DNA of 64,000 nt, taken from the NCBI GenBank assembly GCA_036497565.1, contig DASXJE010000046.1, forward strand, positions 15,929-79,928, written 5' to 3'. Origin of the DNA: Mycobacteriales bacterium (GTDB lineage Bacteria; Actinomycetota; Actinomycetes; Mycobacteriales; QHCD01). The position numbers and the translations under genes are program-made. Of this stretch, positions 60,614-64,000 are shown piece after piece. A model generated the notes under the pieces. The model worked only from the letters and a program-made list of their open reading frames with translations. It did not search any database and was not told the DNA's origin. Position 1 is the first letter of the stretch; every line of letters begins with the position of its first letter.

Positions 60614-62062
60614 GTGAGCGACTCTGCAGGCTCGCTGCCCCAGGTACAGAACCCGCTCACCCTGCTGCGGTCCCGCAGCTACCTGGCACTGCTGCTGATC
60701 GCCGCGGTCCTCGGCGTACCGATCTCGGTGGTCGCCTACTACTTCCTGCAGCTGACCACCCACATGCAGACGTGGCTGTTCACCGATCTCCCGAAGGGGG
60801 TCGGATTCCACGGCGTACCGACCTGGTGGCCGGCGCCGGTGCTCGCGGTGGGCGGATTGCTGGTCGCGCTGACGATCCGCTACCTGCCGGGTAAGGGCGG
60901 CGCGTCGCCCGCGGACGGCTTCAAGGTGCACGGTGCGCCGACCGCGATCCAGCTGCCGAGCGTCATCCTCGCGTCGGTGCTCACCCTCGGCTTCGGGGCG
61001 GTCCTCGGCCCGGAGGCACCGCTGATCGCCATCGGCGCCGGACTTGCCGCCTGGTCGATCCGGCTGATCAAGCGCGGGGCAAACGCGCAGGCCGTGGCCG
61101 TGGTCGGCGCCGCGGGGAGCTTCGCCGCGATCAGCACGCTGCTGGGTTCGCCACTGCTCGGCGCGTTCCTGCTGATGGAAGCATCCGGGCTCGGTGGCGC
61201 GACCGCGTCGCTCGTACTGGTGCCGGGACTGTTGTCGGCCGGGATCGGTTCGTTGGTGTTCATCGGGCTGGACTCATTGACCGGACTCGGCAAGACGTCC
61301 CTCTCGATCCCCAACCTGCCGCCCTTCACCCGGCCCGACGTCGCCGAATTCGGCTGGGCGTTCGCCATCGGACTGGCCGCGGCCATCGTCGGTCTCGGGA
61401 TCCATCGTCTCGGTCTGTGGATGCGGACGCCGGTGGAGCGGCGCCTGCTGATCGCCGCACCGATCGTCGGGTTGATCGTCGCGGGCCTCGCGATCGCCTA
61501 CTTCGAAGGGAGCGGCCATCCCTCCTCCGAAGTGCTCTTCTCCGGCCAGGCGGACCTGGGTCCGCTGATACTGCACAGCAGCGCCTATACGGCCGGCGCG
61601 CTGGCGCTACTCGTCGCCTGCAAGAGCATCGCCTACGGCGCATCGTTGAGTACGTTCCGCGGCGGCCCGATCTTCCCGGCGATGTTCATCGGTGGAGCGG
61701 GCGGGATCCTGATGTCGCATCTGCCAGGGCTGCCGCTCGTCCCGGCAGTGGCGATGGGGATCGGCGCGATGTGCGTGTCGATGCTGCGGCTGCCGTTCAC
61801 GTCGGTGTTACTGGCCACGCTGTTGCTCTACTCCGACGGCGTGGCAGCCATGCCGCTGGTGATCCTTGCGGTGGTGGTCGCCCACGTGGCGTCCGCCCAT
61901 CTCAACCCGGTCCCGGATACGCCGGCTCCGGCTCCCGAGCCGGCGCCGCCGGCCCCCGCGGGGCACCCGAATGGCTCATCCGGTCGGGATGATGCCCCGC
62001 TCGTCCCGGGCCGCGCAGGCTCGGGCGACACCACCAATCCGGAGGTAGCTCATGATGGCTGA
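60614..62062 (+). CDS. ClC-family voltage-gated chloride channel/antiporter homologue, 482 aa
   Basis: ORF 60614..62062, GTG start 7 nt after the regulator stop. ClC signature-like segments GKGGASP, GPEAPL and RGGPIFPAMFIG. Confidence 0.87.
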   Translation: MSDSAGSLPQVQNPLTLLRSRSYLALLLIAAVLGVPISVVAYYFLQLTTHMQTWLFTDLPKGVGFHGVPTWWPAPVLAVGGLLVALTIRYLPGKGGASPADGFKVHGAPTAIQLPSVILASVLTLGFGAVLGPEAPLIAIGAGLAAWSIRLIKRGANAQAVAVVGAAGSFAAISTLLGSPLLGAFLLMEASGLGGATASLVLVPGLLSAGIGSLVFIGLDSLTGLGKTSLSIPNLPPFTRPDVAEFGWAFAIGLAAAIVGLGIHRLGLWMRTPVERRLLIAAPIVGLIVAGLAIAYFEGSGHPSSEVLFSGQADLGPLILHSSAYTAGALALLVACKSIAYGASLSTFRGGPIFPAMFIGGAGGILMSHLPGLPLVPAVAMGIGAMCVSMLRLPFTSVLLATLLLYSDGVAAMPLVILAVVVAHVASAHLNPVPDTPAPAPEPAPPAPAGHPNGSSGRDDAPLVPGRAGSGDTTNPEVAHDG

Positions 62063-62447
62063 CGCAGGCGGATCCCCGTCCGTGAGCAAGGACACCGAGG
62101 ACATTCTGCTCGGCTTGTCCGCCGGTGACGTCGCCGTACTCGAGGCGCTCGAGATGCGTGAGGCGCAACAGGACCGCACCGGCCTCGACGCCCGGACGTT
62201 CGCCCTCGTGAAGATCGCTGCGCTGATCGCGCTCGACGCGCCACCGGCGTCGTACATGTGGCAGGTTGCGAACGCTCTCGCCGTCGGCGCGACGCCGGAG
62301 GACATCCTCGGCGTGATGCGCGCGATCGCACCGCAGATCGGCCTGCCGAAGGTCGTCGCCGCCGCGCCGGAGATCATGGTCGCGCTCGGACTGAGCCTGC
62401 CGGGCGAGGACGACGGGACCCCGTCACCCAACGGCGGCGGACGGTAA
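62052..62447 (+). CDS. Carboxymuconolactone decarboxylase (AhpD-like) family protein, 131 aa
   Basis: ORF 62052..62447, overlapping the ClC 3' end by 11 nt. All-helical CMD-like sequence (DARTFALVKIAALIALDAPPASY...EDILGVMRAIAPQIG). No CxxC motif. Confidence 0.75.
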   Translation: MMADAGGSPSVSKDTEDILLGLSAGDVAVLEALEMREAQQDRTGLDARTFALVKIAALIALDAPPASYMWQVANALAVGATPEDILGVMRAIAPQIGLPKVVAAAPEIMVALGLSLPGEDDGTPSPNGGGR

Positions 62448-62632
62448 TGCTGCGCCGCAGGCGCACTCTGCTGCGGGCCGCCGCGGTCGGCGGAGCGGCG
62501 TACCACGTCGGGAAGAAGCGGGCGCAGCGCAACGACACCGAGGCCGAGCAGAACGCGAAGGTCACGCAGGTCGAGCAACAGCAGCAGATGAGCCAGCCGT
62601 CGGCGACCCCCGGCGCCCCACCGATCGGCTAG
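62447..62632 (+). CDS. Hypothetical small protein, 61 aa (MLRRRRTLLRAAAVGGAAYHVGKKRAQRNDTEAEQ...)
   Basis: Residue 64 (ATG) of ORF 62258..62632. TAATG overlap with the CMD stop. Basic/hydrophobic N-terminus, then a polar Gln-rich tail. Coding status unproven. Confidence 0.4.
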   Translation: MLRRRRTLLRAAAVGGAAYHVGKKRAQRNDTEAEQNAKVTQVEQQQQMSQPSATPGAPPIG

Positions 62633-62656
62633 CCGCAGCCGCTGTCCCCGCGGCCC

Positions 62657-62845
62657 GACCAAAACGCACTCCTAGTGCGTTTTGGTCGTGTGGCACGGCG
62701 TGTCGCGGACCACAACGCACTAGGAGTGCGTTTTGGTCACCGCGGTGAGCGGCCACCCCGTGGACAAAACCCACTAGTAGTGGGTTTTGGACGTGTCGTA
62801 CGGCGTGTCGTGGTCCACAACCCACTAGTAGTGGGTTTTGTCCAC
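62657..62845. repeat. Four low-GC palindromic hairpins in two related two-hairpin units (possible stacked bidirectional terminators or a palindromic repeat element)
   Basis: - H1 62657-62687: GACCAAAACGCACT-CCT-AGTGCGTTTTGGTC.
- H2 62708-62738: GACCACAACGCACT-AGG-AGTGCGTTTTGGTC.
- H3 62765-62789: CAAAACCCACT-AGT-AGTGGGTTTTG.
- H4 62816-62840: CCACAACCCACT-AGT-AGTGGGTTTTG.
- H1-H2 and H3-H4 are each 51 bp apart, with GTGTCG-rich spacers. Confidence 0.85.
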
Positions 62846-64000
62846 CGGGTCCACGGGGTCAACGGCGGCGGTGGAGTCGTGCGCGAGGAGGTCGGCGTAC
62901 GGGCCGGGCGTTTGAGCGAGGTCCGCGGGCCGCCCGCGTTGCACCACCCGGCCGGAGTCGAGTACGAGCACCTCGTCCACGCCGTCCAGCCCGGCAAGGC
63001 GGTGGGTCACCAACAGCACCGCCCGGTCGCGCCCGGCCGCCAGCAGATCCGCGGTCACGGCCTCGGCCGTCGCCGGGTCGAGCGCCGCGGTCGGTTCGTC
63101 GAGCAGCAGTACAGGACGCCGGGCGAGCAGTGCGCGGGCGAGCGCGAGCCGGGTGCGTTCCCCACCCGACATCCGTGCGCCGCGTTCGCCGACGTAGGTG
63201 TCGACGCCCTCGGGCAGACTGCGCACCCACTCGGTCAGACGGGCCTGGTGCATGGCGTCCCAGAGTTCCTCCTCCGTCGCGTCGGGACGTGCCAGGCGCA
63301 GGTTCTCGCGCACGGTCGAGTCGAAGATGTGCGCGTCGCCTGCGACGTGCCCGATCCGCATCCGCACGTCATCCGCCGACGCGGCGAGGACATCCGTGCC
63401 GTCGAGGACGTAGTCCCCGCCCGACACGTCGACGAAGCGCAGCAGCGCCGCAGCAAGGGTGGTCTTGCCCGCGCCGGTCGGCCCGACGACGGCGACCCGG
63501 CGACCAGGACCCAGGTCGAGATCCACCCCGGACACGCCGCGCGGCCGATCGTCATCCGGAGCATCGGGGTCGGCCGGCCACCGCGCAGTCAGCCGGCGCA
63601 CCGCGATTCGGCCGGGACCGTCCGCGACCGGCACCGGCACCGCCGGCGAAGCGACCGGCACCGGCGCGTCGAGTACGTCGGCCAGCCGCCCGGCCGACGT
63701 ACGCACCCGTGACCACACCGACAACGCGGGCGCGATCGCCGACACCGCCTCCCAGGTCGCGAGCGGGAGCAGGACCACCACTGCCAGGTCGACGCCGCGC
63801 AGCGTCCCGGACCGTACGGCGGGGATCCCGACCTCGACCATGCCCCAGACGGCGAGTCCGCCGACGAGGGCCGCGAGCCCTGCGCCGATGCCTTCGACCC
63901 GCCCGGTGGCGCGGGCGACCCGGGAGAGCTCGGCGTCGGCGTCCTCGGCGCGGGCCAGCCATTGCCGGTCGGCGCCGCACGCGACGAGATCCGGTGCCGC
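62825..64000 (-). CDS. ABC exporter, fused TMD-NBD, CydC/CydD-like; 5' end lies beyond the window end
   Basis: ORF 62825..63841, and I checked by hand that the frame stays open upstream to base 64000. Walker A GPTGAGKTT, signature MSGGERTR, Walker B LLLDEPTAALD. The CydC/CydD subtype is only a guess. Confidence 0.85.
   Translation of the reverse strand, partial: AAPDLVACGADRQWLARAEDADAELSRVARATGRVEGIGAGLAALVGGLAVWGMVEVGIPAVRSGTLRGVDLAVVVLLPLATWEAVSAIAPALSVWSRVRTSAGRLADVLDAPVPVASPAVPVPVADGPGRIAVRRLTARWPADPDAPDDDRPRGVSGVDLDLGPGRRVAVVGPTGAGKTTLAAALLRFVDVSGGDYVLDGTDVLAASADDVRMRIGHVAGDAHIFDSTVRENLRLARPDATEEELWDAMHQARLTEWVRSLPEGVDTYVGERGARMSGGERTRLALARALLARRPVLLLDEPTAALDPATAEAVTADLLAAGRDRAVLLVTHRLAGLDGVDEVLVLDSGRVVQRGRPADLAQTPGPYADLLAHDSTAAVDPVDPVDKTHY

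Follow-up and report, generated by a model that had tools for sequence, protein, structure and literature searches.

In the window, by which we mean the whole 64,000-nucleotide stretch of DNA analysed here, a gene of the CMD family and a 61-aa ORF run toward a convergent ABC-transporter gene on the minus strand (ORF 62825..63841; ABC_tran domain E = 2.8e-27), and between and into these genes lie four 25-nt palindromes that form two two-hairpin units of 82-86 nt, A and B (Table 1). All four palindromes match CAMAACSCACTNNNAGTGSGTTTTG on the plus strand with 0 mismatches; a shuffled-sequence control for such palindromes gives 0.00 matches, which means that none are expected by chance. Units A and B are 83% identical over the 83 nt compared, at an offset of 105 nt. 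A search of the whole 64-kb window with the unit HMM finds these two units (E = 1.7e-26 for unit A and 9e-29 for unit B) and no copies beyond them. A first-pass annotation of this DNA had described four hairpins flanked by the end of the small ORF and the end of the convergent ABC-transporter ORF, and its account of the layout is borne out: the 51-nt spacing from hairpin to hairpin inside each unit, the G/C exchange between the stems of units A and B, the CAAAAC of the first and the CACAAC of the second hairpin in both units, the complementarity of 62760-62775 to 62830-62845 and the CTAG/ACTAGT at the hairpin centres are all present. The low GC content that it reported holds as a local dip, to 0.59-0.63 against about 0.72 in the surrounding DNA, and 0.59-0.63 is the full extent of that dip.

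At 62445-62449 the sequence TAATG joins the CMD-family gene to the 61-aa ORF: the stop codon of the former and the start codon of the latter share one base, and the two are probably translationally coupled. The 61-aa ORF belongs to no Pfam family, and the exact sequence of its protein is encoded on 4 metagenome contigs. An exact look-up of the 131-aa CMD protein returned no match because gene callers begin this gene later, giving 121 aa.

Table 1. Positions of the repeat units, their parts and the adjoining features in the window
Feature	Position	Strand	Description
Upstream 61-aa ORF	62447..62632	+	Stop 24 nt before unit A; flanking context only
Unit A, type 2 (G:C subfamily)	62657..62738	.	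Hairpin 1, spacer, hairpin 2; inverted repeat with 31-nt arms, 97% complementary
Unit A terminal arms			GACCAAAACGCACT / AGTGCGTTTTGGTC, which pair across the unit
Hairpin 1	62660..62684	.	CAAAACGCACT-CCT-AGTGCGTTTTG
Spacer motif ACGGCGTGTCG, unit A	62695..62705	+	Invariant columns in alignment A1
Hairpin 2	62711..62735	.	CACAACGCACT-AGG-AGTGCGTTTTG; the third-base C is a mismatch
Unit B, type 1 (C:G subfamily)	62755..62850	.	Core 62760-62845, GTGGACAAAACCCACT...AGTGGGTTTTGTCCAC
Hairpin 3	62765..62789	.	CAAAACCCACT-AGT-AGTGGGTTTTG
Spacer motif ACGGCGTGTCG, unit B	62800..62810	+	Orientation as in unit A
Hairpin 4	62816..62840	.	CACAACCCACT-AGT-AGTGGGTTTTG
TAG stop of convergent ABC-transporter gene	62825..62827	-	Supplied by the CTAG around the hairpin 4 loop
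9-nt tandem repeat GTCCACSGG	62840..62860	.	Found by TRF; starts within the right-hand end of unit B

We scanned one genome for each of 185,579 species with the pattern CAMAACNCACTNNNAGTGNGTTKTG, a genome-wide motif search that the first-pass annotation had named as a check, and obtained 72 loci: 52 in the MAG CAVZJT01, 17 in the MAG CAWINQ01 and 3 that are chance matches. These two related MAGs, both labelled uncultured Actinomycetota, are the only genomes with the motif among the 185,579 species. The window belongs to neither of them; over several kilobases it is 91% identical to CAVZJT locus L056 and 82% identical to CAWINQ locus L060, and a comparison of the intergenic region shows that both relatives carry elements at the same site. 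A relaxed scan (up to 4 substitutions) gave 146 + 43 + 4 hairpins, and the CAVZJT and CAWINQ loci that we fetched hold 146 and 43. These loci are fixed 8-kb blocks, and for about one third of the clusters the sequence available on one side is shorter than 1.5 kb. Together the fetched MAG sequences contain 189 hairpins, 89 two-hairpin units and 69 loci, neighbouring hairpins are spaced 51 nt apart in 86 cases, and repeat copies stand at more than 70 gene ends across the two MAGs. Of the 92 two-hairpin units that we extracted, 91 make up alignment A1. A palindromic mobile element of MITE-like character, which the first-pass annotation had offered as an alternative, thus came near the truth, in that the family is dispersed and one of the related genomes has at least 70 of its units.

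Elsewhere, the motif is absent from the viral contigs scanned. A scan of metagenome contigs returned six isolated hairpins in low-GC contigs, which are ordinary AT-rich terminators outside the family. A search of Rfam 15, also suggested at first pass, returned no known RNA family above the gathering score; at a permissive E-value it produced just eukaryotic miRNA-precursor models, far below their thresholds, as generic long-hairpin matches.

Across the family, a unit is 82-96 nt long (typically about 85) and follows a constant plan of a 5-nt terminal flank, a palindrome, a spacer, a second palindrome and a complementary terminal flank. The palindromes are perfect, with 11-bp arms and a 3-nt loop, and the spacer joins a variable left half to an invariant right half, ACGGCGTGTCG. 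The consensus reads, on the left, [CCCC] GTGGA - CAAAACCCACT-AST-AGTGGGTTTTG - GRC followed by about 8 variable nt and, on the right, ACGGCGTGTCG - YGGAC - CAAAACSCACT-NNN-AGTGSGTTTTG - TCCAC [GGGG]. The motif GGCGTGTC is invariant in 91/91 aligned units, and because the spacer motif is asymmetric, each unit has an orientation. Within CAVZJT, the outer arms depart from the majority base at a rate of 0.6-1.1%, the inner arms at 2.3-4.0% and the spacer motif at 1.1%, whereas the variable spacer half reaches 33%. Within the window, the perfect stem of hairpin 1 reaches 15 bp when its flanks (62656-62688) are counted. The palindrome of unit B is continued by a weaker extension, ACCCC / GGGT, and the unit as a whole is an inverted repeat with 38-nt arms that are 92% complementary.

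The four palindromes are real, but the reading of each unit as two short hairpins needs revision, as the minimum-energy fold on either strand is one hairpin of about 38 bp per unit; unit A, for instance, folds as one long hairpin. The core palindromes themselves are compatible with either structure. The discriminating columns show compensatory changes: in alignment A1, pair 12:91 is AU in 43 units and CG in 30, pair 11:92 is GC in 40 and AU in 21, and pair 10:93 is GC in 67 and CG in 7. The terminal flanks of the units are inverted relative to each other, and the flanks of the short hairpins pair poorly (18-48%). In four CAWINQ units, ACAAAC...GTTTGT pairs solely in the long-range fold, and RNAalifold, run unguided, predicts the long-range helix. 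As judged from this alignment, the discriminating columns favour end-to-end pairing of the unit. A covarying stem pair among them, 19:84, is CG in 48 units and GC in 39, and so is paired in 87/91 and unpaired in 4. Relative to shuffled sequence, the folds have z-scores of -13.7 and -16.4 on the two window strands and of -9 to -16 overall. Pair 35:68 of the long hairpin is non-standard in 41/91 units, through a change of T35 to G/A (21 units) or of A68 to C (23 units) that almost never occur together; window positions 62713 and 62818 are this column-68 C, and columns 15 and 88, the outer partners of 35:68, are nearly invariant. The pattern may reflect a hot spot of mutation, or else a mismatch that is favoured.

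The loops behave differently from the arms. They occur in both reverse-complement forms and in every combination (AGT/ACT in type 1 and AGG/CCT in type 2; columns 24-26 and 77-79), which suggests that they have been inverted frequently at the palindromes; in unit A, the AGG loop of hairpin 2 is the inverse of the CCT loop of hairpin 1. Because the palindrome arms are perfect, the orientation of a doublet can be read from its loops and flanks alone. The two loops of one unit are identical in 42 cases and complementary in 20, and since they are more often identical than complementary, the unit does not read cleanly as two inverted REPs.

The stem difference between units A and B reflects two subfamilies, type 1 (ACCCACT/AGTGGGT) and type 2 (ACGCACT/AGTGCGT), both of which are found genome-wide. 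In CAVZJT, 34 units are C:G in both hairpins and 34 are G:C in both; the stem variants are never mixed inside one unit. Adjacent unit pairs nonetheless consist of one unit of each type in 16/16 cases (p ~1.5e-5 under random pairing). The types also differ in their flanks. GTGGA is the commonest 5' flank (25/91 units), with GTGGAC before hairpin 2 in 31 units, whereas type 2 units have CTGAC or GTGAC as the 5' flank and GCGGAC before hairpin 2. These subfamilies change the history of the locus as it was first told, namely that a unit was duplicated locally and then co-varied. The nearest relative of unit B is a unit at locus L040 (7808-7883), from which it is 1.3% diverged, compared with 2.6% from its ortholog at L056 and 17% from unit A. 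Because units A and B belong to separate subfamilies, the G/C exchange between them is real covariation, but it is one inherited difference. The CACAAC of the second hairpins, which had been taken as a further sign of duplication, is a recurrent polymorphism present in 23/91 units of both types and varies between strains: hairpin 4 of strain L080, from the same population as the window, has CAAAAC in its place.

Comparison of the two MAGs bears on how the repeats evolve. Orthologs in CAVZJT exist for 13/17 CAWINQ loci, and 14 site pairs carry elements in the same intergenic region, yet the types are mismatched at these 14 orthologous site pairs, CAWINQ having mostly hybrid units with a G.G mismatch, plus the ACAAAC variant. 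For 66/70 and 18/19 units the closest copy is found within the same genome, whereas orthologous copies rank 43rd-86th of 90. That same-genome copies are closer to one another than orthologs are indicates within-genome homogenisation or turnover at preferred sites. The palindromic units of E. coli and Salmonella are likewise species-specific.

The sites themselves are predominantly gene ends. By crude GC3-based gene calls, made without a gene finder, the clusters lie between convergent genes in 23 cases, tandem genes in 32 and divergent genes in 7, and 5/77 clusters are possibly inside an ORF. A gene 3' end is located within 100 nt of 56/91 units, typically at a distance of 10-60 nt. Units point the same way as the upstream gene in 22 cases and the opposite way in 32, which is no significant bias (p = 0.22). 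The operator array that the first-pass annotation had considered equally possible is unlikely with sites at gene ends and not at promoters, and the distribution and position of the units led us to reject operator-array, integron attC and CRISPR readings.

The closest known kinds of repeat are the REPINs (with RAYT transposases; Pseudomonas, Enterobacteria) and the BIMEs (PMC3116915, PMC3337134, PMC2817692). Like REPINs, the elements described here are short extragenic palindromes that are over-represented in the genome and clustered, they form fixed-distance doublets that fold into one long hairpin, and they have a species-specific consensus, with the same loci kept in related genomes and no target-site duplication. 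In the REPIN/RAYT system, GT(A/G)G forms a head on the 5' side of the palindrome (PMC2817692); at this position a GTGG-type sequence occurs in type 1 units, and CTGAC or GTGAC in type 2 units. Several properties set the family apart. No RAYT gene adjoins any copy in the DNA searched, the orientation of the loops is random within the doublet, and the spacer contains an invariant motif, whereas the loop is the least conserved part of a REPIN. The palindromes are perfect, flanked by AT-tracts and closed by 3-nt loops, unlike REPs, which are GC-rich and imperfect. Because a RAYT association does not appear in the available DNA, we name the family REP/BIME/REPIN-like and not a member of the REPIN/RAYT group.

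The BIMEs of E. coli are bacterial interspersed mosaic elements assembled from Y and Z REPs and linker motifs. Gyrase and IHF bind them, and binding of IHF, gyrase or Pol I helps to define their classes. The present family resembles BIMEs in combining two REP variants with a conserved linker, GGCGTGTC, in the alternation of the variants within clusters and in its location between convergent or co-directional genes; it differs in that the CAVZJT variants are never mixed within a unit, yet neighbours always differ. There is also a likeness to the Correia elements of Neisseria and to ERIC, RUP and BOX, hairpin-forming MITEs with an effect on mRNA 3' ends, which are likewise non-autonomous, measure about 100 nt and have inverted termini. 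Like them, the units here would be co-transcribed with neighbouring genes and could change gene ends, but those elements have target-site duplications or a known parent IS, neither of which was found for this family.

Based on these comparisons, we propose that the window probably holds two members of a lineage-specific, interspersed extragenic palindromic repeat family that is organised like REP/BIME/REPIN elements. A local duplication does not explain the four hairpins, and neither does a one-off array of terminators. That groups of units have a common spacer variant indicates that whole units were copied. We propose that spread of the units as non-autonomous DNA occurs, or once occurred, via a single-strand hairpin intermediate, in which case the likely agent would be an enzyme that acts without target duplication, such as a RAYT or an IS200/IS605-type HUH transposase; none was found. 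No RAYT or Y1 HUH gene was detected in 640 kb by tblastn with E. coli TnpA-REP (the exact sequence, verified against 4ER8) and two HUH...Y regex scans, and tblastn of the same 640 kb with an approximate IS200 TnpA sequence gave no credible match. The genes lying between two units offer no mobilising enzyme either: those with a beta-lactamase fold, an OLD-like TOPRIM and a DUF559/AbiEi domain, the GNAT gene with a TetR gene, and the gene for an Rpf-like protein do not encode a transposase, and two of these genes, for the beta-lactamase-fold and OLD-like TOPRIM proteins, have no counterpart in the other MAG, which keeps the repeats. Gene conversion could replace a transposase in this scheme. Among the compared loci we saw no insertion or empty-site polymorphism; the synteny of locus L014 with the window ends after a single gene.

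A more far-reaching interpretation is that this is a RAYT-independent system, in which two co-resident and compensatorily distinct doublet families are kept uniform, and mixed in pairs, by a lineage-specific protein or recombination activity. We regard it as tentative and, on balance, improbable. The maintaining agent of such a system would read GGCGTGTC together with the paired termini, and either a new mobilising enzyme or a module domesticated by the host to mark gene ends could fill this part.

Of the other explanations, the least improbable, already raised at first pass, is that the units are mainly bidirectional intrinsic terminators, a modular cassette recruited because canonical terminators are scarce in GC-rich DNA. 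Like bidirectional Rho-independent terminators, the elements present an A-tract, a stem-loop and a T-tract in that order, and they are enriched between convergent genes, 10-60 nt past the stop codons. The 25-mer pattern as it occurs in low-GC metagenome contigs resembles ordinary terminators, function in either orientation agrees with the lack of orientation bias, and consensus terminators in a 20-kb part of the window number 4 where 3.3 would be expected, no more than chance. We nevertheless consider this explanation unlikely. A consensus terminator scan requiring a G+C-rich stem-loop and, directly behind it, a T-run of at least 5 of 8 found none in 61500-64000, the T-run here being GTTTTG with 4 T; the core stem alone is 6-7 bp (-6 to -7 kcal/mol), followed by UUUUG, and in the minimum-energy fold the T-tract is itself paired within the stem. 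Unlike Rho-independent terminators, moreover, these are some 190 near-identical copied hairpins organised as doublets with a conserved spacer. Termination does not account for a spacer motif that is invariant and asymmetric, for unit termini that covary or for the strict pairing of type 1 with type 2, and spread by copying would still be required. A lineage-specific DNA-binding protein, either nucleoid-associated or topology-related, for which the palindromes and spacer motif are the sites and with which the species-specific consensus co-evolved, would account for perfect dyad symmetry over 25 bp, sites 51 bp apart, an invariant GGCGTGTC, a consensus that is species-specific at orthologous sites and an orientation that is unbiased relative to transcription. 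It is a distinctly improbable account, however, as no candidate protein was identified, the sites are at gene ends and not promoters, the loop bases flip freely, and symmetric binding does not explain the covariation of unit ends 80 nt apart.

Two explanations that start from the origin of the units fare worse. A MITE of the classical kind, derived by deletion from a DDE-type IS and moved in trans by the transposase of that IS, would fit the terminal inverted repeats of at least 16 nt, the size of about 85 nt, the many dispersed copies and the sub-lineages. Target-site duplication is absent, however: at any boundary offset we found no consistent signal, the best being 10/91 matching 3-mers against 3.2 expected. 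The flanks of the units instead prolong the palindrome, C-rich on the left and G-rich on the right, and positions are conserved between genomes that are 82% identical in DNA. Nor does any longer element with these ends occur among the 52 CAVZJT loci (~416 kb), which have no shared segment longer than about 250 nt, and therefore no parent IS is seen. These points make a MITE very unlikely. The first-pass proposal, in which a two-hairpin unit was duplicated locally and the compensatory stem changes arose in place, is hardly credible: although the units are adjacent and 83% identical, units at other loci and in a second genome resemble each of them far more closely than its neighbour does, both stem forms (G:C and C:G) are subfamilies spread across the genome with 34 members each, and all 16 adjacent pairs comprise one unit per subfamily.

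Within the repeat family that we favour, individual units could still act on RNA. The short hairpin with its A/U tracts has a predicted stability of -21 to -22 kcal/mol. Based on this stability and the position of the units, a role as bidirectional terminator, as 3'-end stabiliser or as barrier to 3' exonucleases is plausible. Transcribed units would form very stable stem-loops at the 3' ends of flanking mRNAs, and these would be expected to block 3' exonucleases and probably to stop or slow RNA polymerase arriving from either side. The pair in the window would thereby act as an insulator between the small-ORF operon and the convergent ABC exporter gene, to which it also gives the stop codon.

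To our knowledge, REP/REPIN-type repeats have been studied almost solely in proteobacteria, where they depend on RAYT transposases, and a full-text literature search found no paper joining REPIN, RAYT and Actinobacteria. The actinobacterial family is clear-cut and abundant, and it is unusual in having no visible RAYT, an invariant spacer motif, subfamilies in mixed pairs and a species-specific consensus at orthologous sites; these traits would make it a useful test of whether such repeats arise or persist by other mechanisms.

The repeats also affect the genes and sequences around them. They rewrite gene ends, as seen in the tail of the ABC exporter: because the stop codon of this gene lies in the CTAG of hairpin 4, its last residues (...VDKTHY*) are encoded by the element. 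The exporter ortholog at L056 has the same tail, and a TetR gene at L006 has a similar one (...LDKTH*), so that several genes, these three among them, run into an element and end at its TAG. Short tandem repeats adjoin the units as well. Those with a period of 4-30 occur within 65 nt of units 36 times against 8.4 expected from sequence length, an excess of about 4-fold, and near units at loci L001-L072 they often begin at a unit terminus (for example, L005 922-992 and L072 4473-4553). The GTCCACSGG repeat in the window sits in the C-terminal tail of the ABC exporter, where copy number alters the count of PVD tripeptides; there are 2 copies in L082, 3 in L081 and at least 3 in L080, on contigs that are 99.4-99.7% identical to the window.

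Variable accessory genes are a further neighbour of the repeats. At three sites, accessory genes beside or between CAVZJT units are missing at the orthologous CAWINQ sites, which keep a unit (L004 2407-3640 vs L050; L008 2825-3454 vs L057; L029 3304-4569 vs L012), and they include genes for beta-lactamase-fold, OLD-like TOPRIM and secreted proteins. With accessory genes lost or gained beside retained units, the repeats mark spots of gene gain and loss. Assembly of metagenomes, too, is broken by the repeats. Of the four metagenome contigs of this population that carry the locus, two end at the repeat cluster: L079 stops 28 nt past the small ORF, and L080 stops within the tandem repeat that follows unit B, as would be expected if the repeats interrupt short-read assembly.
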